Notes: generated from the letters alone by a model not told the origin. A DNA stretch of 64,000 nt from a virus (IMGVR_UViG_3300034071_001262); one strand, 5' to 3'. Counted from the first letter of the stretch, positions 1-49,447 are shown. A program made the numbers and translations.

Positions 1-2
1 TT

Positions 3-2060: not shown

Positions 2061-2071
2061 GGGAAAATAAA

Positions 2072-30102: not shown

Positions 30103-30111
30103 ACAATTAAC

Positions 30112-31659: not shown

Positions 31660-31673
31660 GGATTATAGATCAT

Positions 31674-31971: not shown

Positions 31972-33609
31972 ATGAAAAAGAAAGTTTTATTCTTATCAGA
32001 AGCTCCGTGGTATAGCACTGGATATTCTGTATATGGAAATCAAGTCCTAAAAAGACTAGTACAAAATCCATCTTTAGATGTTGCACAAATAGCTATATAC
32101 GCCTCTTCAGATGACCCACATGTCAAAGATTTTCCTTGGAAAATTTATGGCAATAAACCATCAAGTAATCATCCACAATATAAGACTTATCAAGTAAGTC
32201 CTAGCGCTCAATTTGGGGATTTTTCTTTTAATGAAGTATTATTAGATTTTAATCCACATTTTGTATTAGATATTAGGGATTGGTGGATGATTGAGTTTCA
32301 GCAAAGATCGCCGTTTAGAAATTTTTTCAAGTGGGCAATAATGCCAACTGTTGATGCTGAACCACAAAATAATCAATGGATTAATACATATGAATCAGCA
32401 GATGCTGTTTTTACATATTCAGAATTTGGTAGAGATGTACTATTAAATCAGTGTGATAATATTAAGTTTTTAGACATTGCATCTCCAGCAGCAAGTGAAT
32501 GTTTTACTCCTGTTGCTAACAAGGCACAACATAAATCACAATGCGGTTTAAGACCAGATTCATTGATATTTGGCACCGTCATGCGTAATCAAAAAAGAAA
32601 ACTTTATCCAGACTTGTTTGAATCATTTAGAGAATTTCTAAATCTATCAAATAGAAATGATGTATTTTTATATTGCCATACATATTATCCAGATATCGGA
32701 TGGAATATACCAGAATTATTAGACACGTATTCTTTATCTAACAGGGTATTATTTACATACAAATGTAAAAAATGTGGTAAAATTACTACTGATTTTTTTC
32801 AAGATGCTATGCAGTTTTGTAAGTCGTGTGGTAATTTTACTAATGCGTTGGTTGGTATTGGCAATAGCATTACAGAAAAAGAATTAGCTAAAATCTATAA
32901 TATATTTGATGTATATATACAATATGCAAATAGTGAGGGTTTTGGTATGCCGCAATTAGAAGCAGCATACTGTGGTTTACCAGTTGTTTCTATATATTAT
33001 TCAGCAATGAAGTCTGTCATTGATAATATCGGAGGTATAGGTGTAAATCCAATTGCGTTTAGTAAAGAATGCGAAACCGGTTGCAATAGAGCTATTCCAA
33101 ACAATCAAGAGTTTATTGATATATTATTAAGGCTATCAGAAAAAACTCAAGATGAATTAAAAAATATAGGTACTAGCGTATGCAATAAAGCAAGAAAAGC
33201 ATATAGTTGGGACCAGACAGCAAATAAGTGGATGGACTATATATTAAATACAGAAATTATACCAGAGCATCTTTCTTGGAAATCACCATCAAAATTATTT
33301 AGTCCAGCACATGCTATTCCAGAACAGTTGACTACATCTTTAGATAAGGTTAATTTCATTTTTAATAACGTATTGGGAAAACCAGAATGGATTGGCGGAT
33401 ATCTTTGGAGAAGAGTATTAAGAGATTGTAGTTTTGGATATAGGTGTGAAAATCTTGAGCATGATTTTTACTTTAATGAATCGCATATACAATCATATAG
33501 TACTGTTAAACCATTTTCTATAGATGAAGCCATGAAAGAAATGACAAATTTTAGACTACAAATGAATCATTGGGAACAGGCCAGATTGGAAAAATTTAAA
33601 ATATCATGA
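31972..33609 (+). CDS. GT4 glycosyltransferase with inserted zinc ribbon
   Basis: STGY, RNQKRK, SEGFGMPQLEAAYCG; CKKC-x13-CKSC insertion. Confidence 0.85.
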   Translation: MKKKVLFLSEAPWYSTGYSVYGNQVLKRLVQNPSLDVAQIAIYASSDDPHVKDFPWKIYGNKPSSNHPQYKTYQVSPSAQFGDFSFNEVLLDFNPHFVLDIRDWWMIEFQQRSPFRNFFKWAIMPTVDAEPQNNQWINTYESADAVFTYSEFGRDVLLNQCDNIKFLDIASPAASECFTPVANKAQHKSQCGLRPDSLIFGTVMRNQKRKLYPDLFESFREFLNLSNRNDVFLYCHTYYPDIGWNIPELLDTYSLSNRVLFTYKCKKCGKITTDFFQDAMQFCKSCGNFTNALVGIGNSITEKELAKIYNIFDVYIQYANSEGFGMPQLEAAYCGLPVVSIYYSAMKSVIDNIGGIGVNPIAFSKECETGCNRAIPNNQEFIDILLRLSEKTQDELKNIGTSVCNKARKAYSWDQTANKWMDYILNTEIIPEHLSWKSPSKLFSPAHAIPEQLTTSLDKVNFIFNNVLGKPEWIGGYLWRRVLRDCSFGYRCENLEHDFYFNESHIQSYSTVKPFSIDEAMKEMTNFRLQMNHWEQARLEKFKIS

Positions 33610-34694
33610 AAGTTTTATATATAGGTAACTATAGAGATGGTAGTGGCTGGTCTGATGCCTGTATTAACAATATTTTGGCAATGGACAAAATAGGTATTGA
33701 TGTTGTGCCAAGATGTGTCTCGTATTCTGTGCAACATGGAAATCCACCAGAGAAGATTTTAGAACTAGAAAAAAAATCAAGTTATAATTGCGATATATGT
33801 ATTCAGCATGTTTTACCAGATTCATATGTATATGATTCTACATATAAAAAAAATATAGGATTTTTAGCCGTAGAAAGCTCTAATTTTAAAGATACTGCAT
33901 GGCAACATCATGCAAATTTATTAGATGAAATATGGGTGCCTAGTTTATATTCTAAGGCGGCATGTAGAAGAAGTGGTATTACTGTTCCTATTCATGTGGT
34001 TCCACATTCTTTAGATATAAATCAATATCTAAATGCACAATTTACAAAAAAAATTGTAGAATTAGAGAATACTTTTAATTTTCTATTTATTGGCGAGTTT
34101 ATTGAAAGAAAGAATATATCAGCTTTAATAAAAGCATTTCATACTGAATTTGATATGACAGAGCCTGTCAATCTTATGATTAAAACATCTAGGCAGAACA
34201 TTGACTATATCAATAATTATAGTGAATCAATAAAAAGAGGGCTTAAAATTAGAACCTCATATAAAAAAGAAATCATCATTTGTGGTAAGCTTAATAAAAA
34301 TGATTATCTTTCTGTAATAAAACAGTGCCATTGTTTTGTAATGCCAAGTAGGGCAGAGGGATTTTGTATACCAGCTTTAGAAGCTATGGCCCTTGGATTA
34401 CCAGTAATACATGCTAGTAATACTGGAATGGATGATTTTAGTTATGGCATAAAAGTAATGTCAAGAACTACACCATGCTTTGGGGCGGTTGATACAATTC
34501 CATTTTTGGACAATGCGCATAGTGATTGGTCAGAAATAGATATAAGATCTCTAATGATAGCTATGAGAAACTATTATATGAAATGGAATACAGTAGAAGC
34601 AAAAAATGATACACATAATGCCATAGAAAAAGCTAAGTTATATAGTCATCAGTCTGTTGGCACAACAATAAAGGATTTATTAAATGATTGCTAG
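33606..34694 (+). CDS. GT4 glycosyltransferase
   Basis: ERKN, PSRAEGFCIPALEAMALG. Confidence 0.85.
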   Translation: MKVLYIGNYRDGSGWSDACINNILAMDKIGIDVVPRCVSYSVQHGNPPEKILELEKKSSYNCDICIQHVLPDSYVYDSTYKKNIGFLAVESSNFKDTAWQHHANLLDEIWVPSLYSKAACRRSGITVPIHVVPHSLDINQYLNAQFTKKIVELENTFNFLFIGEFIERKNISALIKAFHTEFDMTEPVNLMIKTSRQNIDYINNYSESIKRGLKIRTSYKKEIIICGKLNKNDYLSVIKQCHCFVMPSRAEGFCIPALEAMALGLPVIHASNTGMDDFSYGIKVMSRTTPCFGAVDTIPFLDNAHSDWSEIDIRSLMIAMRNYYMKWNTVEAKNDTHNAIEKAKLYSHQSVGTTIKDLLNDC

Positions 34695-35709
34695 TGCAAT
34701 TCCAAAAAACATAAAAGCAATACTAAAACATCCACAGCGTGAAGATAAGCTAAATATTCTTACATTTACCACGCATGAAAGATATGAACAAAATTTATCA
34801 AAAACTGGTCATAATTTCTATGCTTTAAATTATGGCAAATCTTGGGATAAAGACTATGGAGTAATTCCAGAAAATTACAACATCATAAATGAAGTACCGC
34901 CATATTTAGACATAGATATAGTTTTATCACACACATCCTGTGATAGATTACAATATGCTCACGACACATTATCTAACACTAAAAATGCTGGATTGTCAAT
35001 GTTGGCTATACCAATCCTAAGACATACACATGTTCTTCCAGATATAAGAATGGATGTAGAACAACAAAAATCTATATTTCAAAATATACCAGTATTTGCA
35101 AATTCTTTTATATCTGATTACAGCAGAAAGAAATGGGGCTATAATGAATCTAATTCTAATGTAGTTGAACATGGTGTGGATACAGATTTTTGGTTTCCAA
35201 CAAAAGATAAGCGAGATAACGTATGTTTATCCGTTGTAAATGATTGGCCCAATAGAGATTGGTGCTGTGGTTTTAATTTATGGAGAGAGACATCATACGG
35301 ATTACCAGTTCGCGTATATGGTAAAAGTGCCGGTTTTTCTCAACCAGCAGAATCAGTAGAACACTTAAGAGATATATATTCTTCATCTATGATTTTTTAT
35401 AATACATCCATACATTCGCCAGTTCCGACAGTGTTATTAGAAGCAATGGCTTGTGGTTGTGCCATAGTATCAACTGCTAATTGTATGATACCAGAAATCA
35501 TTACACACAAGTATGATGGCTTAATATCAAATGATCCATCAGAACTTAGATCGTTTTTAGAATTGTTATTAAACAACAATGATTTAGCTCGTCAAATCGG
35601 AGATAATGCAAGAAAAACCATACTAGAAAAGTTCAACCTAAACAGGTTTTGTGATAACTGGAACAATCTACTATATACAACTATAGAACGTTACAAGGGA
35701 AAAATATGA
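34684..35709 (+). CDS. GT4 glycosyltransferase
   Basis: HGVD, SPVPTVLLEAMACG, DGLI, IG.NAR. Confidence 0.85.
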   Translation: MIASAIPKNIKAILKHPQREDKLNILTFTTHERYEQNLSKTGHNFYALNYGKSWDKDYGVIPENYNIINEVPPYLDIDIVLSHTSCDRLQYAHDTLSNTKNAGLSMLAIPILRHTHVLPDIRMDVEQQKSIFQNIPVFANSFISDYSRKKWGYNESNSNVVEHGVDTDFWFPTKDKRDNVCLSVVNDWPNRDWCCGFNLWRETSYGLPVRVYGKSAGFSQPAESVEHLRDIYSSSMIFYNTSIHSPVPTVLLEAMACGCAIVSTANCMIPEIITHKYDGLISNDPSELRSFLELLLNNNDLARQIGDNARKTILEKFNLNRFCDNWNNLLYTTIERYKGKI

Positions 35710-36125
35710 AGATTTTTTTATCAAATCATAAGCCAAGTATAGATAACTATATATGGATTAATAATCTATCACAGCTAAATGATTCAGTTTTACCATCAGA
35801 AGCTACCGAAATTATTTGTGAAGATTTTTTGTCATCATTTGCTATAAATGAACAACAAGAACTACTTAATAAAATAACTGAAAAATTGAGACTTAATTCT
35901 AAACTAATAATATCAGAAGTTGACTGTGGTTTAATAACAAAGAGATTTTATTTGGAAGAAATTAATTTGGATGAATTAAATGAAAAAATGTTTAGCGGGA
36001 AAAGAAAAAGTATTTTATCGGTTCATGAGATTATAAAAAATCTACCAGATAAATTACAAGTAAATAATAAACACTTCCAGTATAATGAGTGTAAGATCAT
36101 TTTGACATGCAGGAGGCACAAATGA
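35706..36125 (+). CDS. Hypothetical, degenerate methyltransferase-like
   Basis: ATEIICEDFLSSF...LLNKITEKLRLNSKLII resembles the C-terminal half of class I SAM methyltransferases; no GxG motif. Confidence 0.35.
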   Translation: MKIFLSNHKPSIDNYIWINNLSQLNDSVLPSEATEIICEDFLSSFAINEQQELLNKITEKLRLNSKLIISEVDCGLITKRFYLEEINLDELNEKMFSGKRKSILSVHEIIKNLPDKLQVNNKHFQYNECKIILTCRRHK

Positions 36126-36916
36126 ATATCAATACAAAATGTAATGGATGCGTGTTTAGTGTTTATGAAAATAACATACAGATATCATGCAAGCTAGATA
36201 GACATAATAAATTAACATATGATACGCACGATGAAGAGGGGGCTTTTATCTTAAATAGATTTTGTAGCACATATCGTCCACAAAATTGGCTAGAGGAATT
36301 GTCTGTACAAGAAAGCGAAAATATAGTTTCAACTGTCTTACGAGAGATTATCCCGTGTGTAGGATTTTTTGTTTTGTTAAAAACAGATTCTTTGGATGCT
36401 ATGAGTAAATTAGAAAGCACTATAAAAGACATAAAGAATCAATCTTTTGCTGCCAGATATGTTGTAGTATCAACAGATAAAGTAGAATACAATGAAGGCA
36501 TACAAGAGCTGTTATGTAAATATTTTGATTTTGATACCACTAATCATCATATTGTACAATTAATACAACAGCCATCATCAATGCCATTTATTATAGACGA
36601 ATGTTTCAAACATGCAAAAAATGGGTGGGCATATGTGTGTGAGTCTGGAGAATCAATAGATAATAAGCTAATTGAAAAAATCCATAAACGAGTTAATTTA
36701 GATCTAAAACGTCTTAGTGTTGTCAAGCCATATAAAGAACCACTTAATGGTTTATTATTTCAAACAGCTTTATTCAAATTTCTCCACGGAAACACCGTGA
36801 AATTGTTTAAAGATGATGTTGTAGATAATAGAGAATTTCTAGATAAAGTGGCTAATGCCGCAATTAAAAGTGATCCAGACACATTTATCACATGGGAACA
36901 ATTCAATGAATCCTAA
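36122..36916 (+). CDS. Cys-rich N-domain plus degenerate GT2-like protein
   Basis: CNGCVF...C...FC, then LESTIKDIKNQS. Confidence 0.4.
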   Translation: MNINTKCNGCVFSVYENNIQISCKLDRHNKLTYDTHDEEGAFILNRFCSTYRPQNWLEELSVQESENIVSTVLREIIPCVGFFVLLKTDSLDAMSKLESTIKDIKNQSFAARYVVVSTDKVEYNEGIQELLCKYFDFDTTNHHIVQLIQQPSSMPFIIDECFKHAKNGWAYVCESGESIDNKLIEKIHKRVNLDLKRLSVVKPYKEPLNGLLFQTALFKFLHGNTVKLFKDDVVDNREFLDKVANAAIKSDPDTFITWEQFNES

Positions 36917-37682
36917 TGTAGCTATTATTATTACTAACTATAATTATGGTAAATATGTTATACAAGCAATAAATAGCGCCACTAATCAAGATTACGCTGG
37001 TAACTTGCGTGTATATGTTTTAGATGATGGATCTAGTGATGACTCTTGGGAAAAAATTTCGAATATCACAGATCACCAATATTGTGCAACAATAAATGAA
37101 CCCTATTATTCTGGCCCAATTGACCACAGACAAAAGGATAATATTTATGCTTTTAGGATTAATAATTCTGGAGCAAGTACTGGCAGAAATGTAGCTATAT
37201 GGCAGTCATGGGATTGGGCTGAAATTTTTGGTATATTAGATGCTGATGATGCCTATTTTGAAAATAAGGTGTCTATCTTGGTAGAAAAATTAATTGAATA
37301 CGAAGAAGTAGGAGTGGCATACGCTGATTATAATAATGTATATTCAGGTTATCGTAAAACAGAATTTAAAGAATCATATAGTAGAGATATATTGTTAAAT
37401 CGCTGTATAGTGCATAGCAACTCCCTTATTAAAAAATCAAAAATAGAGTCTGTCATACTTCCAAATAAAGAAATTTTTGATTCTAGGTTACATGGCGCAG
37501 CTAGCAAGGGATTTATAGGATGTACTGAAGATTATGACTTATGGTTAAGATTATCTAAGGTTTGTATTTTCACGCACGTTCCAAAAATATTAGCCATTGC
37601 TAATCAAACTGGACAAAATCAATCATATAAAATGACATCAGAAATCTTTAAAGAAAACGCTAAAATATTAAGTAGCAGATAA
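36906..37682 (+). CDS. GT2 glycosyltransferase
   Basis: IIITNYNY, DDGSSD, GRN, LDADD, EDYDLWLR. Confidence 0.9.
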   Translation: MNPNVAIIITNYNYGKYVIQAINSATNQDYAGNLRVYVLDDGSSDDSWEKISNITDHQYCATINEPYYSGPIDHRQKDNIYAFRINNSGASTGRNVAIWQSWDWAEIFGILDADDAYFENKVSILVEKLIEYEEVGVAYADYNNVYSGYRKTEFKESYSRDILLNRCIVHSNSLIKKSKIESVILPNKEIFDSRLHGAASKGFIGCTEDYDLWLRLSKVCIFTHVPKILAIANQTGQNQSYKMTSEIFKENAKILSSR

Positions 37683-38404
37683 TGAATAGATTTACAACTA
37701 ATATTACTAAGATAAGAATTAATCCTAAAACTTCTAAGAAGACAAGCAATATTAGTATCATCATGCTTTGTGCTGGAGTTGGATTAAGAATTAAATCATA
37801 TGAGCCTCGTAGTATTCTGAAAATAAAAAATAAAACACTACTAGAACATCAAATAGACATACTAAATACTGTATTTGATTGTCCAGAAATTATTTGCGTA
37901 GTTGGATACGACGCCCAAAAAATCATCAAAAAAAATTACAATGTCAGAATTGTGGAAAACCAATTATATGAAACCACAAACGCAGCTGAAAGTTTAAGAC
38001 TAGCCTTTAATAATACATTAAATGACAACATACTATTTCTACATGGTGATTTATTCTTTAATAAAGAAACATTTAATGTCAAGTATAATAAATCCTTTAT
38101 ATTAGTAGATAGCAATAAAAGATTTAACAATAGTGAAGTTGGTGTAACAATATGTAGTGACACCAACAAGGCTAGTATTTTATCGTATGGATTAAATACT
38201 AAATGGTGTCAGATCGCATACTTAACTGGTAAAGAAACAAAAATAGCTAAAAATTTATTCCAAAAATTTGAAACAACACATAAAAAAATGTTGTGTTTTG
38301 AATTATTAAATGAGATGATAAATACTGGAGCTTGTTTTGAATGTCATGAGCCTAACAATATGAGCATAACAGAAATAGATAGAATAAAGGATATTGATAT
38401 ATGA
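37682..38404 (+). CDS. NTP transferase (LicC/cytidylyltransferase-like)
   Basis: LCAGVGLRIKSYEP..L, VVGY, N..YETTN, GDL, EID..KD. Confidence 0.75.
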   Translation: MNRFTTNITKIRINPKTSKKTSNISIIMLCAGVGLRIKSYEPRSILKIKNKTLLEHQIDILNTVFDCPEIICVVGYDAQKIIKKNYNVRIVENQLYETTNAAESLRLAFNNTLNDNILFLHGDLFFNKETFNVKYNKSFILVDSNKRFNNSEVGVTICSDTNKASILSYGLNTKWCQIAYLTGKETKIAKNLFQKFETTHKKMLCFELLNEMINTGACFECHEPNNMSITEIDRIKDIDI

Positions 38405-39438
38405 AAGTATTGATAGCGAGTGATGGTGTACATGCTCATTTTTTTGAACGAGCAGCTTGGGCAAACGCATTTAATGCGTGTGGTATACAATCGATATTGT
38501 GGGATTGTAAAAAAATACCAGCATTTGATATATTTGATACATATGAACCAGATATTTTTTTAGGACAGACATATAATTTAGAACCAGCTTTGATTAAATG
38601 TATCTATGAAAGACCACATTTAAAAGTGGCTTTACGTGCTGGAGATTGGGGAGATCAAGAATCTATAGTTGATAAATCGCAGTATAATATTTTATACTGC
38701 TCATCGTCAGAAAAACAGATTTTGCAGAAATTAAAAGATGAGACAGGAAAACCAGATTTTGTATATATTCATTATGATGAAACATCAATAAATATTACCC
38801 ATAATCATTTTAGATCTATTGGCATTGAACCTAAATCAGTAATGATGAGCGCGGACATAATGATGTATTCTAATGCACAGTATGATCCCAAACTAGATTG
38901 TGATATAGCGTTTGTTGGTGGCTATTGGCCCTATAAGGGTTTAGTAATCAATCAGTATCTATTTCCATTAATGAACGATGTTGGTAAATATAATATTAAA
39001 ATCTTTGGAAATCAAGTATGGCCCTCAAATCAATATTGTGGTATGATAAGTGACACAGAAGTAAAGAATCTCTTTGTATCTGCGAAAATTTGTCCAAATT
39101 TAAGCGAGCCACATGCACATGCGTTTGGTATAGATGTCAATGAGAGAATTTTCAAGATTTTATTTGCTGGCGGATTTTGTATATCTGATTATGTAGATTC
39201 ATATAAATTATTTGGTGATGGTTTGATTATGGCTAAAACACCAGACGAATTTCAAAACAAAATAGAATATTATCTAAATCATCCGTCAGAAAGAATAAAG
39301 GTTGCTAATATTGGACAATCAATAGTAAAAAAATATCACACATCTTTTGATAGAATAGCACAAATCATGCATTATTTTAATATGCCACAAATTGCAAATC
39401 TTATTCTTACAAAAAAATTGGAGATAATAAATGTCTAA
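38401..39438 (+). CDS. CgeB-like glycosyltransferase
   Basis: DIAFVGG, AKICPN, VNERIFKILFAGGFCISD, YYL.HP.ER. Confidence 0.75.
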   Translation: MKVLIASDGVHAHFFERAAWANAFNACGIQSILWDCKKIPAFDIFDTYEPDIFLGQTYNLEPALIKCIYERPHLKVALRAGDWGDQESIVDKSQYNILYCSSSEKQILQKLKDETGKPDFVYIHYDETSINITHNHFRSIGIEPKSVMMSADIMMYSNAQYDPKLDCDIAFVGGYWPYKGLVINQYLFPLMNDVGKYNIKIFGNQVWPSNQYCGMISDTEVKNLFVSAKICPNLSEPHAHAFGIDVNERIFKILFAGGFCISDYVDSYKLFGDGLIMAKTPDEFQNKIEYYLNHPSERIKVANIGQSIVKKYHTSFDRIAQIMHYFNMPQIANLILTKKLEIINV

Positions 39439-40390
39439 AAAAGTATTAGTAACTGGAGCAAATGGATTTCTTGGCACTGCTGTAATTAAAAAACTATCAG
39501 AAGAAACTAAATACGATATACTTCCAGCAAATGGAAAAGCGAAGTGGGATCTAACAAATAAGAAATATGTTGATTGTATGTTGGCTCATTATCAACCAGA
39601 TATTGTTGTACACTTGGCGGCAAGAGTTGGGGGTATTCAAGCAAATAAAGAAAATCCGGGTTTATTCTTTTATGAAAATTTAATAATGGGTGTTAATTTA
39701 ATAGAAGCCTGTAGACAATATGACAAGTTAGAAAATTTCGTAATGGCCGGAACAGTATGCGCATATCCCAAATTTACTCCAGTTCCATTTAATGAAGATG
39801 ATATATGGAATGGTTTTCCAGAAGAAACCAATGCTCCATACGGGATAGCAAAAAAAACATTAATGCAAATGCTTATAGCGTATAAACAACAATATAATTT
39901 TAATTGTGTCAATTTAATTCCAGTAAATATGTATGGACCAAATGATAATTTTGATCCAAGAATTAGTCATGTTATACCAGCTCTTATCTTGAAATATAAG
40001 CGAGCAATAATCAAAAAAGAAGATGTAGTAGAAATATGGGGTACTGGTAACGCTAGTAGAGAATTTTTATATGTAGATGATTGTGCAGAAGCCATAGTAA
40101 AATCCATTACGGCTAATGTGTCTCCAGAACCTATTAATATAGGAACTGGTAATGAAATTAATATTAGAGATCTGGCATCGCTTATTGGAAAAGAAATGGG
40201 ATATACTGGAAGCATACAATTTAATTCAAATTTTCCAGATGGACAACCAAGGAGATGTTTAGATACTAACAGGGCGAAGTCGTTGCTGGGCTTTCAAGCC
40301 AAAACATCCTTTATGGATGGTATAAAATATACCGTTGAGTGGTTTAATCAAAATGAGGGTAGATTTAATGATTACATCAATAATTTTTAG
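39431..40390 (+). CDS. fcl: GDP-L-fucose synthase / ColC-like epimerase-reductase
   Basis: GANGFLG, AARVGGIQAN, GTVCAYP, YGIAK, NMYGPNDNF, SHVIPAL, REFLYVDD, PDGQPRR. Confidence 0.92.
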   Translation: MSKKVLVTGANGFLGTAVIKKLSEETKYDILPANGKAKWDLTNKKYVDCMLAHYQPDIVVHLAARVGGIQANKENPGLFFYENLIMGVNLIEACRQYDKLENFVMAGTVCAYPKFTPVPFNEDDIWNGFPEETNAPYGIAKKTLMQMLIAYKQQYNFNCVNLIPVNMYGPNDNFDPRISHVIPALILKYKRAIIKKEDVVEIWGTGNASREFLYVDDCAEAIVKSITANVSPEPINIGTGNEINIRDLASLIGKEMGYTGSIQFNSNFPDGQPRRCLDTNRAKSLLGFQAKTSFMDGIKYTVEWFNQNEGRFNDYINNF

Positions 40391-41219
40391 TAAAAATCGC
40401 CCACTACAATTAGATCTATGCATTAAATCAATTAAAAGAAATTTTCTTGATTGTAATCAAATATTAGTTTTAGAAAAATATGATGATAATTATAGTAAGA
40501 TGCTTGATATATTAAGCAATGAACATCAAGATATAAATATTTTTCAACAAACGTCTTCTATATACCATGACTGTTTAGACCTATGTAAAAATGCCGTTAA
40601 CCAGTATATCTGTTTATTTACAGATGATGATATTGTATATAAAAATACAAACCACATAATATGTGATCAAATATTTAATCATGAAGAATTTTGTACTATA
40701 TCATTAAGACTAGGTTTGAATACAATTAAAAGAGAACACTTACATGAAGTAATTGATGATATTCCGAGAATTTGTTTTGAAACTACAGATTATTTATTAA
40801 TCCCAAAAACAGCTTATAACTATGGTTCTTATTGGAGTTATTCACATTCTTTAGATGGTCATATTTTTCGTAAAGCCGATCTAATTCAAATATTTGATGA
40901 ATTGTCTTATTTAGATAAGAAATATCACTTTAAACAATCTCCAAACGAATTAGAAACACAAATGCAAAGATATTGGGCAGTCACACCAAATATTATTGTT
41001 TGTCAAAAAAATAGCACAGTAGTTAATAGTCCAAATAATAGAATACAAAATACTCATCTATCAAATAAAGCTGGATCATATTTTAACTATAGTCCAGAAA
41101 AATTATCTACTCTATACAAGAATGGATATAGAATACAACTTAGTACATTAAATTTTGATAACATTGATTGTCCACATAAAGAAATTGATATATTGAGCGA
41201 CATAAACTATGATATATGA
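40368..41219 (+). CDS. Putative GT-A glycosyltransferase
   Basis: IIFSKNRPLQL, FTDDD, SLRLG, SLDGHIF. Confidence 0.6.
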   Translation: MITSIIFSKNRPLQLDLCIKSIKRNFLDCNQILVLEKYDDNYSKMLDILSNEHQDINIFQQTSSIYHDCLDLCKNAVNQYICLFTDDDIVYKNTNHIICDQIFNHEEFCTISLRLGLNTIKREHLHEVIDDIPRICFETTDYLLIPKTAYNYGSYWSYSHSLDGHIFRKADLIQIFDELSYLDKKYHFKQSPNELETQMQRYWAVTPNIIVCQKNSTVVNSPNNRIQNTHLSNKAGSYFNYSPEKLSTLYKNGYRIQLSTLNFDNIDCPHKEIDILSDINYDI

Positions 41220-41916
41220 TGCTATAATTTTATCACATCCAAAAGACTATAACAAGATTTCATTTTGTCTAGATTCTTTACGTAATCTAGATCCATCTCC
41301 GATGCATACATATCTGGTTACTCCAGATGCTGTTTCTATTGATGGACTAATATCAATTAGCGATAAAGAAGCAATAAACGTAGATATTGAACAAATACAT
41401 TATAAAAGACCAAACTGGATTTATCAACAGCTAATTAAGTTATATCAAGATTTTACAGCAAATAATATCTACATGTGCATAGATAGTGATGTTATTTTTA
41501 ATCGTCCAATACATTTTACTGGAAAAACATTCTTTATCAGCGATAGGGCGCAGCATCATGAACCATATTTCAATTTTATGAAATCATATTTTGGAATAAC
41601 TGAGTGGGCTAATCATACTTTTATTAATGACTTCATGATATTTGACAAACAGCTTTGTAGAATAATGCTACCAGAAATAAATAGATTTGTCGAACACTTA
41701 AATACCTATCTGTCCGATGATAGATATTTATTTTCTGAATTTGAAACATATGGTAATTTTGTGGCTCATAACTTTAGTGGGATGTATACATTTAGATTGA
41801 CAAAGACTAAAACTCTTGGTAAATATACTTCATGGGATACACAAGAATTAATAATTGCTAAAGAGCTATGTAAAACACTTCCAATAGACTTATTTACTGT
41901 ACACACTTGGACATAG
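41209..41916 (+). CDS. Putative GT-A glycosyltransferase
   Basis: WIYQQLIKL, IDSD, FSEFETYG. Confidence 0.6.
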   Translation: MIYDAIILSHPKDYNKISFCLDSLRNLDPSPMHTYLVTPDAVSIDGLISISDKEAINVDIEQIHYKRPNWIYQQLIKLYQDFTANNIYMCIDSDVIFNRPIHFTGKTFFISDRAQHHEPYFNFMKSYFGITEWANHTFINDFMIFDKQLCRIMLPEINRFVEHLNTYLSDDRYLFSEFETYGNFVAHNFSGMYTFRLTKTKTLGKYTSWDTQELIIAKELCKTLPIDLFTVHTWT

Positions 41917-41917
41917 C

Positions 41918-42763
41918 ATGAAACTCATAAATACATTCATATCAGACAAAAACGATGTTCCAGATTATGTTGCACTATCTTTAGAACAAGCTAGACATTT
42001 TAATCCAGAAATTGAGATTTATTTTATTTGTAAATATAAACAAGAATTTTTTGATAAGTTAAATATTAAGTGGGTTGATCAAGAGTCACTAGCTGAAGGG
42101 CAAACACTAAAAAGATTTAATCAAGTATGTTCATTTAGGCGTCATGGCACACCAAATACTACATATCCTAGTCCAGATTTGTTTTGGCATAGAACGGCTG
42201 AAAGAATATTCTATATATTAGAACTAATGCTAAGAGATACAATGGATGAAGTATTCCATTTTGAGAATGATGTTTTAATATACCATGATTTAAAAGATGT
42301 AGAAGTTTCTCAAAATGTAATTATTACACCAATGTCATTAACACATACAACATTTGCATTTTCATATTTTCCAACGCCAGCAAAGTTGTTTGATTTATGT
42401 TCGTATTTTATTATGTTGTTAGAACATGGGGAGCAAAATTTATTATCGTTTGGCTATGATCATATTAGTGAAATGTCACTATTAAATATGGCCCTAAGAA
42501 ACAATTTAGTTAAATGTTTTCCAATATTTCAAAATTATAATGGTTTTATATATGATCCGGGTTCTTATGGTCAGTATTTAGGTGGCACAAATAATGGTCA
42601 TGGGGCTGGTTTTGTAGATCCATCACATTATATAGGGCAAAAAATTCTACTAAATGAAATACATCCAGTATTTGATGTTAAGCCATATACGGAACATAAT
42701 CCTATTTTCAATCTACATATACATAGTAAAAATTTGGGACAATTTATATGCAAGACTACATAG
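41918..42763 (+). CDS. Putative glycosyltransferase
   Basis: FW..TAER, HFENDVL, YDPGSYGQYLGG, NLHIHSK. Confidence 0.55.
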   Translation: MKLINTFISDKNDVPDYVALSLEQARHFNPEIEIYFICKYKQEFFDKLNIKWVDQESLAEGQTLKRFNQVCSFRRHGTPNTTYPSPDLFWHRTAERIFYILELMLRDTMDEVFHFENDVLIYHDLKDVEVSQNVIITPMSLTHTTFAFSYFPTPAKLFDLCSYFIMLLEHGEQNLLSFGYDHISEMSLLNMALRNNLVKCFPIFQNYNGFIYDPGSYGQYLGGTNNGHGAGFVDPSHYIGQKILLNEIHPVFDVKPYTEHNPIFNLHIHSKNLGQFICKTT

Positions 42764-43524
42764 ATGGGAATGGTTTTAAAAAAGTCTGTGAATGTACTTG
42801 GCAAGATGCAATCCCAAATAAGGATAAAGTAATTATTTATGCTAATACGCACGAATATCAACAAGCATTGAATAGAATAGCGCAATATACAAATATAAAA
42901 TTTATATTAGTGACACATAATAGTGACCATTCTATTGAACGCACAGATATACCAATTAACTTAATTAAGTGGTACGGTACAAATGTTAACTATGTCCATG
43001 AAAAGATCTCACCTATTCCAATAGGATTAGAAAATGAGCATTGGCATCCTAATAAAAGAAACTTAATTAATAAAGCAATATATAGCAAACAAGAGAGAAA
43101 AAATAGAATTTTTGCACAATTTAATCCAGATACTTTTCCATCCGAAAGATATAATCTTTGTTACGATATTTGGATGAAAAAAATAAATGCTGATATGTAT
43201 AGATGTATAAATGGTATAGCATTTGATTCATATGTTAATAATTTATGCACATATAAATATTGCCTATGCCCACGCGGAAATGGCATAGATACGCATAGAG
43301 TATGGGAAGCTCTATATCTTGGATGTATACCAATAGTAAAAAAACATATAACACATTTTTTTAATGAAAAGCTACCAATAGTTTATATAGACGATTGGAA
43401 AGAAGTAACAGAGGATTTTTTAAAAAATATAATTGACAATTTTGATTATTCGCTATTTAAATCTAAAACATTAACAATGACATACTGGAAAGAAAGAATT
43501 TTAAATGAGGCAAATCAAGATTAA
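42748..43524 (+). CDS. Exostosin-like (GT47) protein
   Basis: THNSD, PIPIGL, YKYCLCPRGNGIDTHRVWEALYLGCIP. Confidence 0.75.
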   Translation: MQDYIDGNGFKKVCECTWQDAIPNKDKVIIYANTHEYQQALNRIAQYTNIKFILVTHNSDHSIERTDIPINLIKWYGTNVNYVHEKISPIPIGLENEHWHPNKRNLINKAIYSKQERKNRIFAQFNPDTFPSERYNLCYDIWMKKINADMYRCINGIAFDSYVNNLCTYKYCLCPRGNGIDTHRVWEALYLGCIPIVKKHITHFFNEKLPIVYIDDWKEVTEDFLKNIIDNFDYSLFKSKTLTMTYWKERILNEANQD

Positions 43525-44422
43525 TTTTTATAATATGTGGGGAGGATTTTTCCCTCATGATAATCTTATCACCAACACACTAAAATTAAAGTATGATGTT
43601 ATTGCTAACTTACAAAACGAAACTCCAGATATCGTTATATGCCAAAATACAGAAAGTGTAGCGGCTAAAAATGTTACTAGAGCATTTAGGGGTAAATCTA
43701 AAATTATTCACTGGTATGTAGAGTCACTGGATAGAATTGGAGATCCAAATTATACAGAATGTGATTTTTCTATAACATCATGCAAGTTTAACCATGACAA
43801 AAATATAAGAATACCATTATGGTCTATGTATATAGATTGGTTTAATAACCAATATCATCCCGGTAGAAATCAAGCCTATTTAGTTAGCCCCAAAAAACTA
43901 ATAACGCCAAAAGAAAAACAAACAAAAGATAAATTTTGTTCAGCTTTAACAAATAATTCTTTAGGATATCGTGCTACAGCTTATCCACAATTCATAAATT
44001 TTGCAACCTCAAAGGGTCTATTGGTAGAAAGCCGTGGCAATTTTTGTCAAACCTGCCCAAAACTGAATGGGGACGAAAAAGATAAAATAGATTTTATAAA
44101 GAATTTTAAATTTCATTTAACATATGATAATAGTGATTTACCGGGATGGATTACAGAAAAATTAATACACCCAATGTCTGAGGGGTCAATACCAATTTAT
44201 TGGGGCGGAATTGATGTAGAAGAAGAGTTTAATAAAGATGGGTTTATACATGTGAGAAGGTTTGATAATCTAGATGAAGTGCATGATCGTGTTTTTCAGA
44301 TATACAAAAATGAAGAATTATTCTACGATATACAAACACAACCATGTTTTCCAGATAATAAAATACCAGAATGTGCCACTCCAGAATTTATACTCTCTAA
44401 ATTAGAAACGATTGTAGAATGA
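43505..44422 (+). CDS. GT10 alpha-1,3/4-fucosyltransferase-like
   Basis: KFCS...N, K..FIKNFKF.LTYDNS..PGWITEKL...IPIYWG (alpha-1,3 FucT motif). Confidence 0.85.
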   Translation: MRQIKINFYNMWGGFFPHDNLITNTLKLKYDVIANLQNETPDIVICQNTESVAAKNVTRAFRGKSKIIHWYVESLDRIGDPNYTECDFSITSCKFNHDKNIRIPLWSMYIDWFNNQYHPGRNQAYLVSPKKLITPKEKQTKDKFCSALTNNSLGYRATAYPQFINFATSKGLLVESRGNFCQTCPKLNGDEKDKIDFIKNFKFHLTYDNSDLPGWITEKLIHPMSEGSIPIYWGGIDVEEEFNKDGFIHVRRFDNLDEVHDRVFQIYKNEELFYDIQTQPCFPDNKIPECATPEFILSKLETIVE

Positions 44423-45594
44423 ATAAACCAATAAAATTGTGTTCAGATATTATAGACAAATATGATATACAAAAGTTGGCGTTTTGGCTTCAAAACATGC
44501 CACAGCTAACAAAGGGCGAACAAACAATTAAGTTTGAAAAAGAATTTTCTGAATTTATTGGATGTGAACATTCTATCTATTGTAATTCTGGTTCTTCTGC
44601 GAATCTATTAATAGTTTCTGGTTTACTCCAATCTGGAATGTTAAAAAATGACAAAATAATAGTTCCACAAATTTCATGGTCTACAACAGTTTTTCCAGCA
44701 ATGCAGCTTGGATTGATTCCAATACTGTGTGACTGTGATATGCATAACCTTGGCATTGACATAGAAGATCTAGAAAGAATTATTAAAGAAGAAAATCCAG
44801 CAGCAATTATGCTAGTACATGTGCTTGGTTTAAATTCTAATATTCAAAAGATTATTGATCTATGCAACGAAAAAAATATATTAATAATTGAGGATACATG
44901 TGAAAGCCTTGGCTCTGAGGTAAATAGTAAAAAGCTTGGATCTTTTGGATTAGCTTCATCTTTCTCATTTTATTTTGGGCATCACATATCAACAATTGAA
45001 GGCGGAATGGTATGTACAAACAATAAAGACCTAGCAAATATTATAAAAATGATTAGAAGTCATGGATGGGATAGGGACTTAGACAGCAACACAAAAGCTT
45101 TCTATAGAGCATCTAATAATATACCAGAAAATTCTATATCATCATTATATACATTTTATCATATGGGATTTAATTTAAGATCAACTGATCTACAGGCGTT
45201 TATTGGAATTAACCAAATGGATAAAATATCAGACATAGTAACAAAGAGGCAGAAAAATTATTTTCAATATGTAAATTGTATTCGAAAAGACTTATGGAAG
45301 CCAATAGCCACAAAAGATCAAAATGTTATATCGAATATGGGATACCCGCTAATTGTAAAAAATAAAGATATAATGTATCAAATATTTAAAACAAATAATA
45401 TAGAATGTAGGCCACTAATATCTGGAAGCATGGGAACACAGCCAGCTTGGAAAAAAAAGTATAAAGAGTATAAGAGCAAAAATTCAAATTTGATTGATAA
45501 TTATGGTATGTACTTGCCTAATCATCAAGATTTGACCGAAAAAGATATACATAAAATATGCAATCTAATAAACGAGTACGGAAATAATGTCTGA
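44419..45594 (+). CDS. DegT/DnrJ family PLP enzyme, ColD-like GDP-4-keto-6-deoxy-D-mannose 3-dehydratase
   Basis: NSGSSAN, EDTCESLG, SFYFGHHISTIEGG (His at the usual PLP-Lys position), RSHGW, GFNLR. Confidence 0.8.
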   Translation: MNKPIKLCSDIIDKYDIQKLAFWLQNMPQLTKGEQTIKFEKEFSEFIGCEHSIYCNSGSSANLLIVSGLLQSGMLKNDKIIVPQISWSTTVFPAMQLGLIPILCDCDMHNLGIDIEDLERIIKEENPAAIMLVHVLGLNSNIQKIIDLCNEKNILIIEDTCESLGSEVNSKKLGSFGLASSFSFYFGHHISTIEGGMVCTNNKDLANIIKMIRSHGWDRDLDSNTKAFYRASNNIPENSISSLYTFYHMGFNLRSTDLQAFIGINQMDKISDIVTKRQKNYFQYVNCIRKDLWKPIATKDQNVISNMGYPLIVKNKDIMYQIFKTNNIECRPLISGSMGTQPAWKKKYKEYKSKNSNLIDNYGMYLPNHQDLTEKDIHKICNLINEYGNNV

Positions 45595-46402
45595 AATAAT
45601 TAATCTAATTGATAAAAATCCAGACTCTCATGTATACCAAAAGGCGGCAGAGATACTTTCCAAACAATTACAAGATGATTTTTCTTTTGTCTTACAGGTT
45701 TGGAGTGATGCAACGCCAAAAACAAAACATAAAAAGATATTAATACTAACATCAGACGAAACACATAAAATACCACAACAGATTAATGATCCAGATGTTG
45801 CTTATATTTTTAAACAATATATACCAATGTCAAATTATCGTGATGTTAATTCTGTAGAAAATATACCACGGATATTTGCCCTGCCATTGTGTGAGTTAAA
45901 TGGATTTACCGATTTTAGCAAAAATATACATGATAGGGAGTACGATTGGTGCTGGATGGGCCAATATGACCCATACAGAAGGACAGATTTTAAAAATGCT
46001 ATAGAGATAGCCAAGACTTTAAATGGTGTCAAATACAAGGAATTATGGTACAATGGATGGAATAATGGGGCTAAAATAGAAGACTATTGTGCGATAATGA
46101 ATAATACCAAAATAGCACTTGTTCCAACCGGATCGGCTAGTTTTGAAACATTTAGGTTTTTTGAAGCTATGATGTGTGGGTGTGTTGTTTTATCTGTTCC
46201 ACAGCCAAATGTTGACTTTTATAATACTGCCCCATTTATACCAATAAATAACTGGGTTAATGAAATATCGGATACTATTAGATCTGTTCTTAATAAAAAG
46301 AACTTAATGTCCACAATATCTATGTCTGGAAGAAAATGGCATAACTATTATTGCTCTCCCGAAGGTTTGTCTAACTATATGCTGGAGAAGATCAATGCTT
46401 AA
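45587..46402 (+). CDS. Exostosin-like (GT47) glycosyltransferase
   Basis: YDWCWMGQ, KIALVPTG..SFETFRFFEAMMCG; paralog of 26707. Confidence 0.75.
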   Translation: MSEIINLIDKNPDSHVYQKAAEILSKQLQDDFSFVLQVWSDATPKTKHKKILILTSDETHKIPQQINDPDVAYIFKQYIPMSNYRDVNSVENIPRIFALPLCELNGFTDFSKNIHDREYDWCWMGQYDPYRRTDFKNAIEIAKTLNGVKYKELWYNGWNNGAKIEDYCAIMNNTKIALVPTGSASFETFRFFEAMMCGCVVLSVPQPNVDFYNTAPFIPINNWVNEISDTIRSVLNKKNLMSTISMSGRKWHNYYCSPEGLSNYMLEKINA

Positions 46403-47078
46403 AACTCACATATTGCACTATCAAAAATTAACAGATAGAAAAAAACACATAGAGGACCAGCTTGAAAAACAAAATATACAAGACTATAGTTTTATAACAG
46501 ATTTTGACAAAGAACAACTAACAAAAGATATAATTGATAAATATTATATTAATGATAAGGCCACAACTGACAAGCACTCAAATGTAACGCTCAAACATAG
46601 CATGTCCCCATATTCTGTGTATAGGGAGCTTTCGTTAGCATCAATATCTCTATGTATTAAGCATATAAAATCATTAGAATTGTTTCTTGAAAGCGATTAC
46701 GATGAATTACTAGTTCTTGAAGATGATTGTAATTTTTATGAAAATAGTATTACATTAAATGATGTTATATCTGATGCTCCAAGCGATTGGGACATAATAT
46801 TTATAGGCGGCGCTTTTAGTCACAATATATTACCGGTTAAGCAAATATTTAATGGGTATATCTTGTCAGGGCATCCAGCAACTAATACAACATCATCACT
46901 AATATATAATAAGAAATCAGCACAAAAAACATTAGATACAATAGTGCCATTTGCTTTACCGATTGATTGGCATCTAAATCATATTTTTCATTTAAACAAT
47001 TTTAATGTTTATCACACTTATCCATATTTATGTAATCAACTCAGCAACATATCGTTTAGCGGTACGATAGAAAGGTAA
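46395..47078 (+). CDS. GT25 family glycosyltransferase
   Basis: DRK, L.IKH, LVLEDD, WDIIFIG, PIDW. Confidence 0.8.
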   Translation: MLKTHILHYQKLTDRKKHIEDQLEKQNIQDYSFITDFDKEQLTKDIIDKYYINDKATTDKHSNVTLKHSMSPYSVYRELSLASISLCIKHIKSLELFLESDYDELLVLEDDCNFYENSITLNDVISDAPSDWDIIFIGGAFSHNILPVKQIFNGYILSGHPATNTTSSLIYNKKSAQKTLDTIVPFALPIDWHLNHIFHLNNFNVYHTYPYLCNQLSNISFSGTIER

Positions 47079-47083
47079 TTATT

Positions 47084-47557
47084 ATGAACATAGCGGCTAT
47101 TGTTGACAACCTTGGGCCATCACAAAAGTCATTTTATCTCATAAAAGAATTTAATAAAACATTATCACAAAATGATTTATGTGTATCGGTTTTCTTTAAA
47201 AGAGCTTCTGTTCCAGTAATACCAGCTATGTTTTCATGCAAAAGCGTATCATTTTTGTCTGGATATCACCATACGGCAATTGCTACAACTATAGATGAAG
47301 CTAGTATTTTATTAAAATCTAATAATAATGCAAATAAATTTTTATACTTATGGAATCTAGAATGGTTAACGTATCCATCAAAATATTCCGCTATAACAAA
47401 TATATTACGTGATTCAAGATTAAAAATCATTGCCCGTAGTGAGTCACATGAGGCTATGATATACAATTTTTGCAATAAGAAAACAGTAGGAATTGTTGAC
47501 AACTGGAATGTTAGTCAGTTACTTTCTCTTACTCAACAGGATTATTCTAATGTCTGA
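47084..47557 (+). CDS. Hypothetical (GT N-domain-like) protein
   Basis: IATT, KFLYLWNLEW, IARS..H; cluster context. Confidence 0.45.
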   Translation: MNIAAIVDNLGPSQKSFYLIKEFNKTLSQNDLCVSVFFKRASVPVIPAMFSCKSVSFLSGYHHTAIATTIDEASILLKSNNNANKFLYLWNLEWLTYPSKYSAITNILRDSRLKIIARSESHEAMIYNFCNKKTVGIVDNWNVSQLLSLTQQDYSNV

Positions 47558-49077: not shown

Positions 49078-49079
49078 AA

Positions 49080-49409: not shown

Positions 49410-49447
49410 AAAAAGAAAACCCCGCCTTTTGAGCGGGGTTTTTTATT
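49409..49447. terminator. Bidirectional intrinsic terminator
   Basis: AAAACCCCGC-CTTTTGA-GCGGGGTTTT with A and T tracts, between convergent operons. Confidence 0.9.

Follow-up and report, generated by a model that had tools for sequence, protein, structure and literature searches.

Soluble enzymes for sugar transfer and activation in a 15-kb operon of an uncultured ~147-kb phage, with a possible role in glycosylation of phage proteins

The uncultured ~147-kb phage represented by IMGVR_UViG_3300034071_001262 carries a 15-kb operon (hereafter, the island) of soluble sugar-transfer and sugar-activation enzymes. In the window, the 64,000-nucleotide stretch of DNA analyzed here, seventeen ORFs lie back to back on the plus strand at positions 31972–47078, and every junction overlaps or leaves at most 5 nt. 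The reading we favor, tentatively and with slightly less than even confidence, is that the island is a phage-autonomous assembly line for cytoplasmic glycosylation of phage proteins. Thirteen of the seventeen ORFs have Pfam-supported sugar-enzyme domains: three GT4, a GT2, two CgeB-like, a GT47, a GT10, a GT25, a DUF6492, a nucleotidyltransferase, an Fcl-like reductase, and a ColD-type 3-dehydratase. The initial annotation of this DNA had described a packed one-strand array of seventeen genes reaching 47557. The packing and the glycosyltransferase (GT) families, nucleotidyltransferase, and reductase it named are borne out, but the seventeen genes end at 47078; counting to 47557 brings in an eighteenth ORF (47084, 157 aa) that carries no sugar-related signal.

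The borders of the island are conserved. Directly 5′ of it, the SSB gene (31656–31970) marks the junction with the replisome genes; the assignment comes from PF00436 on the homologous ORF at the equivalent position in three related contigs (L027, L028, and L042), and the position is kept in all relatives. Its orientation and translational coupling tie the island to SSB and DnaE, not to virion genes. To its right lie conserved 157-aa, HNH/homing-endonuclease-like, 250-aa, and 109-aa ORFs (47084–49409, plus strand; the ORF at 47493 matches PHROG 559 HNH endonuclease at 3e-8), whose homologues border the island even in the distant L017, L019, and G007 and which are probably not glycan enzymes. 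A bidirectional intrinsic terminator (49416–49442), with an 11-bp stem of 6 GC pairs and A and T runs on either side, separates the plus-strand array from the convergent tail-fiber operon and is common to both.

The first ten genes form a syntenic core in more than ten uncultured viral contigs and a 155-kb contig, a lineage-wide feature across a deeply diverged lineage. It opens with a 545-aa GT4 (31972–33609; Pfam Glycos_transf_1), hereafter GT545, and continues with two further GT4 genes (33606–35709; starts at 33606 and 34684, 362 and 341 aa, Glycos_transf_1 at 3e-17 and 1.2e-14) whose syntenic homologues are 26–64% identical. Two ORFs of 139 and 269 aa follow (35706–36916), conserved in eight relatives and without a match in Pfam, NCBIfam, PHROG, or PDB profiles; the 269-aa product carries N-terminal Cys residues that are invariant. 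The core then encodes a GT2 (36855–37682; Glycos_transf_2, 2.3e-14; 42–71% identity in relatives), a MobA/IspD-like sugar(-phosphate) nucleotidyltransferase (37682–38404; NTP_transf_3, 1.1e-10; in NCBIfam, weak GlmU/IspD-type matches only), a CgeB-like GT-B glycosyltransferase (38401–39438; Glyco_trans_1_2, 3.9e-18), and an Fcl/ColC-like GDP-4-keto-6-deoxymannose epimerase/reductase (39431–40390; Pfam Epimerase) that belongs to the core in most relatives. The last core gene (40335–41219) has no PDB match; an invariant DD pair (D97/D98 in alignment A4) within a TDDD stretch makes its product a possible GT-A candidate. Several ORFs had earlier been called GT-A-like, which is unproven for those at 35706, 36107, 40335, and 41918 because none has a family match; these four and 47084 return nothing from Pfam, NCBIfam, or PHROGs.

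An inserted four-Cys zinc ribbon sets GT545 apart, as does its helical C-terminal extension. C265, C268, C283, and C286 are invariant in alignment A1, together with the EX7E region. The AlphaFold2 model (pLDDT 86) has as its top PDB fold the chlorovirus NY-2A glycosyltransferase 3oy2 (TMt 0.79), and structure comparison also places the small-molecule GTs MshA, BshA, and GlgM among the near GT4 folds. GT545 occurs in every related locus at 34–69% identity and has 2,178 cluster-level metagenomic relatives; it was found in no isolate genome, and its matches in genome collections are confined to metagenome-assembled genomes of unrelated phyla. This distribution suggests that the gene family belongs to phages and was not recently captured from a host. 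GT545 is a candidate for the initiating enzyme of the island.

Downstream of the core, the island is variable. Its last seven ORFs (41209–47078) start at 41209 (DUF6492), 41918 (no family), 42748 (GT47-like; Exostosin_GT47/RXYLT1_C), 43505 (GT10 fucosyltransferase-like; GT10 and FucT_N), 44419 (ColD-type 3-dehydratase; DegT family), 45587 (CgeB/GT47-like; Glyco_trans_1_2/RXYLT1_C), and 46395 (GT25, from Pfam). Most of them are retained by one relative only, G005, which replaces GT10, ColD, and Fcl; G001–G003 carry ~8 kb of unrelated sugar genes instead. Across the relatives, the replacements comprise FkbM methyltransferases, GT8, GT11, GT29, NeuB, UDP-Glc dehydrogenase, and others.

The phage encodes a complete deoxyhexose donor route. 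The gene at 44419, first described as a PLP dehydratase, can be refined to a ColD-type PMP 3-dehydratase: its best PDB matches are ColD/WbdK (2gms, E 1.7e-57; 3gr9), and its GHH aligns with the SHH of ColD, so that the catalytic His, identified through the H188N mutant entry 3b8x, replaces the PLP-binding Lys. The neighboring GT10, fucosyltransferase-like by its Pfam domains, is a candidate colitosyl- or fucosyltransferase. The reductase at 39431 matches GDP-L-fucose synthase 8du0 (E 9e-65), is 61–67% identical to its relatives, and scores 292 bits against NCBIfam Fcl, under the 500-bit equivalog cut-off. Relatives without ColD also conserve this reductase, so it may be a fucose synthase; it may serve fucose, colitose, or both. 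No GMD gene lies within the 82.8-kb record itself. We extended the phage by walking overlapping contigs with 99.97–100% identical overlaps, which brought coverage to ~135 of ~147 kb, and found GMD in contig L050 (3507–4505, 332 aa; 1n7g at 9.4e-95, 1db3 at 1.3e-88), assigned to the same phage by 99.99% identical overlaps. The gene stands at the head of the late operon, as the third called gene co-oriented with terminase on the late strand, and completes the GDP-fucose/colitose route. Walking also recovered a pair of GalE-like and GT25 genes. The bacterial GDP-L-colitose pathway (ManC, GMD, ColD, ColC) of O-antigen loci, for example that of E. coli O55, shares GMD, ColD, and an Fcl/ColC-type reductase with the phage. 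In the phage these genes lie apart from one another, GMD being part of the late operon and ColD of the variable cassette, and they have no Wzx/Wzy context.

Sugar genes also occur elsewhere in the window. A GT47/RXYLT1-like glycosyltransferase (26707–27615, plus strand; RXYLT1_C, 7.8e-9), already recognized as GT47 in the initial annotation, is a paralogue of 45587 and lies between a PD-(D/E)XK nuclease and a split DnaE, a position kept in 11 relatives. A second cluster had been proposed at 1–7323. Its sugar genes hold up at 3894 (Sulfotransfer_1, 3.5e-5), 5376 (NTP_transf_3/NTP_transferase), and 6250 (Glyco_trans_1_4, 2.4e-15), which with one ORF without a family make up 3894–7323 on the plus strand, and more weakly for a GT2/GtrB-like ORF (3–464, plus strand), the 3′ part of a 289-aa frame starting 405 nt upstream of the window (PHROG 22739 at 5.5e-4; a weak PF00535 match on the identical gene in L042–L045). 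The same stretch also contains DUF1501, thioredoxin, and three ORFs without a family, and is a glycan cluster only in part. The estimate that a third of the window is glycobiology comes down to ~25% for ORFs with sugar-related Pfam support, or ~31% when embedded ORFs without a family are included.

The phage has no recognizable export machinery in the stretches covered. A hydropathy scan detected no ORF with more than two transmembrane (TM) segments in the 82.8-kb record, and in ~135 of ~147 kb of the phage no multi-pass membrane gene was found, the tape measure being the one product with TM segments in the part reached by walking. In G007, a complete 152-kb mosaic relative, the scan picked out just an 82-aa ORF with three TM segments and a 304-aa ORF with two. 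No scanned ORF matched Bac_transf or Glycos_transf_4, the Pfam families of WecA/WbaP-type priming phosphoglycosyl transferases (PGT), and neither the ~135 kb covered nor G007 contains a flippase, ABC exporter, polymerase, or chain-length regulator. A captured O-antigen or capsule locus is therefore rejected, as had been argued from the window, given that no Wzx/Wzy/ABC/PGT-like multi-pass protein is found in the window, flanks, walked loci, or G007; nor do export genes lie just outside the window in any of these stretches. Soluble viral GTs and sugar-nucleotide enzymes without an exporter are the combination expected of virion glycosylation, and the proposed cytoplasmic synthesis agrees with a system that is soluble and, with its own GMD, largely self-sufficient.

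The acceptors suggested at the outset, the products of 11572, 49467, and 60039, show no outstanding Ser/Thr-rich tract. Those of 49467 and 11572 nowhere reach the threshold of 50% Ser/Thr over 20 aa; the remaining one, the 3187-aa ORF, shows a single weak stretch at 60%. Nine late-strand tail proteins, a set that includes 49467 and 60039 but not 11572, lack a Ser/Thr-tract signal and sequon-like enrichment (motif z-scores: SG 0.9, TG 1.1, DS 0.0, NxS/T 0.9) and count against glycosylation of phage proteins. The sole strong poly-Thr tract in the phage is the (Thr7-Ala-Ala-Pro)×3 stalk of a 276-aa fiber protein encoded just outside the window, ~33 kb from the island on the early/middle strand. 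By eye, this protein has no hydrophobic N-terminal segment; its C-domain resembles the cyanophage Pam3 fiber (VIA, Z 14.2, rmsd 2.7 Å over 156 aa) and the Bxb1 tail tip (Z 10.6). Its homologues retain Thr-rich linkers that differ in length and sequence. It is a better candidate acceptor than the three products named before; against it stand the distance and strand of its gene and the fact that Thr-rich linkers do not always carry sugars.

We infer that the enzymes act as one pathway, in which soluble GTs would attach sugars singly to an acceptor already in the cytoplasm. Phage GMD would convert GDP-mannose, and the Fcl-like reductase would then yield GDP-L-fucose or, together with ColD, GDP-L-colitose; two nucleotidyltransferases and the GalE-like epimerase would provide other donors. 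The ten core genes, with GT545 leading, may make a conserved inner glycan, to which the swappable distal cassette (here GT47, GT10, ColD, and GT25) would add strain-specific outer sugars. The likeliest acceptors would be the phage's own particle proteins, foremost fibers such as the poly-Thr-stalk protein. No exporter would be needed because the glycan would exit the cell on the virion at lysis.

A serious rival, though we consider it less likely, is remodeling of the host envelope, in which the soluble GTs act at the inner membrane face on host lipid-linked intermediates (undecaprenyl-PP-glycans, lipid A-core) and a host flippase, ligase, or exporter displays a new surface glycan that blocks superinfection or adsorption of progeny to debris. 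The enzymes belong to families that assemble LPS and O-antigen (GT4 with a WaaG-like fold, GT25, GT10, GT2). These families also make LPS cores on lipids and need no TM segments to do so, a point that weighs against glycosylation of phage proteins; colitose is a classic O-antigen sugar, and the phage encodes exported proteins (three Tat-type DUF1501, thioredoxin, and a prepilin-like protein). There is also a precedent in the lytic aquatic cyanophage P-SSM2, whose 24 'LPS' genes in two large clusters, including sugar epimerases, transferases, and synthases, were interpreted likewise (Sullivan et al. 2005, PMC1079782), and whose Fcl homologue is 40% identical to 39431. Those clusters, however, are accessory and missing from the sister phage P-SSM4 (PMC1079782), as is usual for surface-conversion genes, whereas the first ten genes of the island remain syntenic over a deeply diverged lineage unrelated to P-SSM2 (DnaE replisome versus T4-like). 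Remodeling would further require at least ten phage GTs all to suit host acceptors, with no priming transferase of the phage's own, and sits poorly with a GMD beside terminase in the late operon and with the absence of GT545 from isolate genomes.

Other acceptors in the cytoplasm have also to be weighed. Two observations count against glycosylation of phage proteins: the coupling of the island to SSB and DnaE, and the joint passage of GT545 and the replisome module into G007, a genome with unrelated head and packaging genes. The island's place straight after SSB and DnaE, the further GT between nuclease and DnaE, and a T4-gp1-like dNMP kinase would suit hypermodification of DNA, in which GT545 and its partners glycosylate replicated phage DNA to evade restriction and CRISPR. 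Phage GTs that place mono- to trisaccharides on DNA are kin to LPS and teichoic-acid enzymes (bioRxiv 10.1101/2023.12.21.572611), and the known systems (T4 α/β-GT; TET-dependent 5hmC glycans; 5hoC arabinosylation, PMC13326640) likewise keep soluble GTs beside replication genes. Every recognized route nevertheless requires a hydroxylated base, and this phage has ThyX with dCMP deaminase and dUTPase. PF00303 (ThyA family) and PF00145 (C5-methyltransferase) are absent from G000, G006, and the complete G007, in searches whose positive controls worked; PF12851 (Tet_JBP) gave no match either, though its control also gave no signal anywhere. Known DNA glycans have at most three sugars, against at least 12 GTs in the phage. 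Since no ThyA-type or C5-methylase gene was found, we regard DNA, the alternative acceptor in the initial annotation, as very improbable. That the phage, in taking over its host, glycosylates host proteins or small molecules, or produces an oligosaccharide in free or storage form, seems improbable to a lesser degree. In favor are the solubility of all the enzymes, a TcdA/TcdB-like GT domain in relatives, and small-molecule enzymes among the near GT4 folds, but a dozen GT families, rare-sugar synthesis, and a strain-variable periphery typify surface-exposed glycans under diversifying selection rather than metabolism or takeover.

Glycosylation of phage proteins would have few counterparts. Autonomous glycosylation of a virus's own proteins in the infected cell has so far been demonstrated, to our knowledge, in mycobacteriophages and giant viruses only. 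The capsid glycans of chlorovirus PBCV-1, made with virus-encoded GMD/GMER and soluble GTs, combine a conserved core with strain-variable decoration, and Megavirinae have fibril glycan clusters. The phage resembles these viruses in its own soluble GTs, its GDP-6-deoxyhexose enzymes (GMD and the Fcl/GMER homologue), the lack of an exporter, and the chlorovirus GT4 fold closest to GT545, and the earlier analogy with giant viruses fits its conserved core and variable periphery. It differs in being a tailed bacteriophage of the bacterial cytoplasm, with no sequence orthology beyond shared families. Mycobacteriophage systems, as far as we know, comprise just a few GTs, located in the structural operon, and lack a sugar-nucleotide pathway, in contrast to the at least 12 GTs, complete deoxyhexose route, and sulfotransferase found here, joined to a replication operon. 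Both encode their own GTs. Those of mycobacteriophages act in the cytoplasm on the phage's capsid and tail-tube proteins (Freeman et al. 2023, as described in PMC12619734), and those of the island may have a similar role.

In its fullest form, which we hold as possible but somewhat doubtful, the proposal is that a widespread, uncultured lineage of ~150-kb phages builds a complex, strain-variable oligosaccharide on its own fibers or particle with its own soluble cytoplasmic enzymes, comprising at least ten linkages, 6-deoxy or 3,6-dideoxy sugars, and possibly sulfate. If true, glycosylation of the chlorovirus and mimivirus kind would have an equivalent among bacteriophages, its inner core conserved and its outer cassette exchangeable.

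The window corresponds to G000:C1:10384-74383 within an 82.8-kb viral record, and nearly all genes between 12850 and 49409 lie on its plus strand. Ahead of the sugar-gene island, the gene order is nucleotide metabolism (RNR, dUTPase, PhoH), RecA, DnaB, primase, a T4-gp1-like dNMP kinase, a PD-(D/E)XK nuclease, a GT47-like gene, DnaE split around an exonuclease gene, and SSB, and the island begins directly 3' of SSB. The split DnaE (27608-31659) consists of two ORFs separated by an 82-aa ORF and the exonuclease gene, which is of the DEDDh type; this layout is kept in all relatives. From 31972 to 47078, the ORFs overlap or abut, with a largest gap of 5 nt, which bears out the initial annotation of 17 contiguous glycan genes. 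Pfam supports 13 of the 17: three GT4, a GT2, an NTP_transf_3, two Glyco_trans_1_2 (CgeB-like), an Fcl-like SDR, a DUF6492, an Exostosin_GT47/RXYLT1_C, a GT10 with a FucT N-domain, a DegT-family enzyme, and a GT25. Four ORFs within the array, together with 47084, had no match in Pfam, NCBIfam, PHROGs, or profile-versus-PDB searches. Past the island, the array continues through four conserved non-sugar genes up to a hairpin at 49416-49442 (11-bp stem flanked by A and T runs). This strong terminator acts in both directions, sits in a 57-nt convergent gap, and is common to the convergent tail-gene operon. The conserved right flank also holds an HNH/homing-endonuclease-like ORF (47493-48332), found even in distant relatives. 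Sigma-70 promoter-like sites occur at background level in the island, and the window shows no excess of TTGTGTA, a proposed late-promoter motif (10 found, 14 expected). A second cluster had been proposed at 1-7323; it does contain a sulfotransferase, an NTP-transferase, a GT4, and a weak GT2/GtrB-like ORF, but it is looser than the island and interspersed with DUF1501, thioredoxin, and three unknown ORFs.

The first gene of the island (31972-33609), a 545-aa Zn-ribbon GT4 that we call GT545, marks a widespread lineage. Searches with GT545 recovered 14 IMG/VR loci (34-69% identity). Its cluster representatives number 2,178, and Tara, ENA, and JGI metagenomes account for many of them, with contigs reaching 155 kb. 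In a tblastn matrix, the replisome genes and the island core (31972-41219) are collinear in more than ten contigs at 40-70% identity, and a 155-kb JGI contig has the identical replisome and core order. The distal part behaves differently: it is mostly retained in G005, but with GT10, ColD, and Fcl replaced, and it gives way to ~8 kb of unrelated genes in G001-G003. Forty-two ORFs from the variable parts match FkbM and other methyltransferases, GT2, GT4, GT8, GT11, GT29, GT47, GT32-like and TcdA/B-like domains, NeuB, UDP-glucose dehydrogenase, formyltransferase, DegT, PIG-L, and SDRs. One relative carries a GT29-type sialyltransferase domain (1.5e-18), from a chiefly eukaryotic family, and NeuB (1.4e-41), seen among the pooled ORFs of L019 and L022-L026; the variable parts of others hold GT11, a TcdA/TcdB-like GT domain, and four FkbM methyltransferases. 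In the distant L017, L019, and G007, the island is reduced to the Zn-ribbon GT4 and a few genes between unchanged flanks. The collinear core and the differing distal genes thus make the island a module of the whole lineage, conserved at its core and hypervariable at its periphery.

No member of the lineage was found among the isolated phages of INPHARED. In a collection of 185,579 species genomes, GT545 homologues occurred only in MAGs of unrelated phyla, archaea included (L051-L067), labeled Flavobacteriales, SAR202, Verrucomicrobiales, Phycisphaerales, Paceibacteria, Promethearchaeota, Thermoplasmatales, and others. The simplest explanation for these occurrences is mis-binning of phage contigs, and the family looks viral; some of the contigs measure 150-176 kb and are probably whole phage genomes. 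The labels point to no particular host. Among cellular DUF1501 clusters, the nearest are planctomycetal, a host lead only.

In the GT545 alignment, four invariant Cys residues form a ribbon that is inserted in the C-terminal Rossmann domain, and the GT4 EX7E region is present. The AF2 model (pLDDT 86) adopts a standard GT-B fold whose nearest solved structure is the chlorovirus NY-2A GT4 (3oy2, TMt 0.79), followed by MshA, PimB', BshA, GlgM, and WaaG; these neighbors are generic GT4 enzymes and give no hint of the acceptor. A sequence likeness to streptococcal GtfA/Gtf1 (E 0.007) was discarded, being confined to the nucleotide-binding motif. The LAGLIDADG_3 domain of a 912-aa homologue (P0021, 67% identity) suggests that an intein or a homing endonuclease has inserted there. 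Elements of this sort typically sit in conserved, important genes.

The sugar-nucleotide enzymes point to a GDP-deoxyhexose pathway. The DegT-family enzyme is nearest to ColD/WbdK, the GDP-4-keto-6-deoxymannose 3-dehydratase (2gms, 1.7e-57), and retains the His that substitutes for the usual PLP lysine, a residue identified from an H188N mutant entry. The gene at 39431 encodes an Fcl/ColC-type epimerase-reductase (8du0, 9e-65) that scores under the NCBIfam equivalog cut-off. The 82.8-kb record contains no GMD. We extended the phage beyond the record by exact-protein look-ups followed by overlap comparison; all overlaps were 99.97-100% identical at the DNA level, so the walked loci belong to the same phage. 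Identical copies of its sequence recur in dozens of assemblies. On the late strand, the genes start in the order sigma-like, 263 aa, GMD, HNH, ERCC4, and large terminase. The 332-aa GMD (L050:3507-4505, ~100.5-101.5 kb in window coordinates; 1n7g, 9.4e-95; 1db3, 1.3e-88) is thus the third called gene co-oriented with the terminase. Some 28 kb upstream of the window, the walk also reached a GalE-like SDR and another GT25-like gene. With GMD, ColD, the reductase, and GT10 all encoded, the phage set is sufficient for GDP-L-fucose, GDP-L-colitose, or both. Because the reductase is kept in relatives without ColD, gene content makes fucose the likelier core sugar, and colitose would be a strain-specific addition. 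A full-text literature search on phage and colitose listed no paper that seemed to describe a phage-encoded colitose route, and the one encoded here may be the first known.

Export machinery was sought well beyond the island. A hydropathy scan of all ORFs in the 82.8-kb record found none with more than two TM segments, and in the walked loci, which bring the coverage to ~135 of the phage's ~147 kb and leave ~12 kb of early region, the 2619-aa tape measure (five segments) was the sole exception. The 152,429-bp G007, a relative rated 100% complete, has just an 82-aa 3-TM ORF and a 304-aa 2-TM ORF. No scanned ORF matched the Bac_transf, Glycos_transf_4, Wzx, or Wzy families. Exporter genes close outside the window, a possibility left by the initial annotation, were therefore not found in the stretches seen, and the soluble, exporter-free, giant-virus-like architecture that it described holds over the same stretches.

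Where the glycan is placed is a separate matter. Glycosylation of phage DNA by the island enzymes is very improbable. All characterized phage DNA glycans require 5hmC, 5hmU, or 5hoC, supplied by ThyA homologues or by a methyltransferase with TET, and comprise three sugars at most (bioRxiv 10.1101/2023.12.21.572611). This phage relies instead on ThyX, with dCMP deaminase and dUTPase, and ThyA-family and C5-methylase matches are absent from G000, G006, and the complete G007 in searches whose controls worked; the initial proposal of DNA as an acceptor is weakened accordingly. Tet_JBP also had no match in these three genomes, although its control gave none anywhere. Remodeling of the host envelope carries more weight but still seems unlikely to us. 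The GT families and colitose are characteristic of LPS, LPS-type GTs require no TM segments, and the 24 'LPS' genes of P-SSM2 were read in this way (PMC1079782). Against it, the syntenic core is kept in a deeply diverged lineage and has no priming enzyme, unlike known conversion modules.

Glycosylation of virion proteins calls for an acceptor, and those first named for it do not stand up: Ser/Thr-rich tracts are absent from the products of 11572 and 49467, the 3187-aa ORF has one weak stretch, and they are merely Ser/Thr/Asn-rich beta-type proteins. Atlas and PDB searches with 49467 returned nothing past 'viral hypothetical'. In shuffle tests on nine late-strand tail proteins, SG, TG, DS, NxS/T, and all Ser/Thr di- and tripeptides were not enriched. 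The tract scan gave one striking case, a 276-aa plus-strand ORF (L001:8664-9494) located 889-1719 nt upstream of the window start. It has no hydrophobic N-terminal segment, and a (Thr7-Ala-Ala-Pro)x3 stalk follows its short N-terminal segment; homologues have a Thr/Pro- or Thr/Ala-rich linker of differing length and sequence, and then a conserved Gly-rich domain. The model of this C-terminal domain (pLDDT 80-98) resembles the cyanophage Pam3 fiber (VIA Z 14.2, rmsd 2.7 Å over 156 residues, 26% identity) and the Bxb1 tail-tip protein (Z 10.6), and the domain is fused to fn3/Ig modules in other proteins. Lacking a hydrophobic N-terminus and bearing a fiber-type domain, the protein appears to be a fiber with a mucin-like stalk made in the cytoplasm. 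We regard it as the best acceptor candidate, which should replace those named before. G007 encodes six proteins with tracts of this kind, one beside its fiber genes, and the position of GMD in the late operon fits glycan synthesis during assembly. Three observations speak against virion proteins as the target: the island is tied to the replication operon, the fiber gene lies apart from it, and in G007, with its unrelated head genes, GT545 accompanies the replisome.

G007 has the replisome, GT545, flank genes, and fiber pieces in common with this phage but no detectable TerL, MCP, or GMD homologues; being mosaic, it was rejected as a stand-in for a complete genome of the lineage. The 158-aa gene 3' of the fiber gene is 97% identical between L001:9497-9973 and G007:85497-85973, compared with 35-58% for the replisome proteins and unrelated head genes; this disparity suggests a recent exchange of the fiber cassette, and the 158-aa product may be a fiber chaperone. 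Two G007 proteins (G007:77354-81520; L037:17354-18931, L038:57-1520) join Thr/Pro-rich linkers with FGE-sulfatase domains, and this phage has three DUF1501 genes and a sulfotransferase, which together indicate a sulfate/sulfatase theme.

Overall, the initial observation is borne out and extended, and its interpretation is partly supported. To our knowledge, the large sugar-gene clusters of aquatic phages have remained putative 'LPS genes' since 2005. Cyanophage clusters are not conserved within a lineage, whereas this island is. We know of experimental demonstrations of phage virion glycosylation only in a few mycobacteriophages, with small GT sets. Those systems (Freeman et al. 2023, as summarized in PMC12619734) are much smaller and less self-sufficient than this island. 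An exchangeable periphery around a conserved ten-gene core, a GDP-deoxyhexose route, no exporter where examined, and an acceptor candidate make an old question testable by co-expression. The lineage's GDP-deoxyhexose route is complete, with its first enzyme in the late operon. If the host envelope is the target, the island would be the largest known phage program for rewriting the host surface in lytic growth. If the particle is the target, phages would carry strain-specific glycans on their surface, with possible effects on adsorption, aggregation, grazing, and immune recognition, and work on rare sugars would gain a set of soluble GTs from the island.
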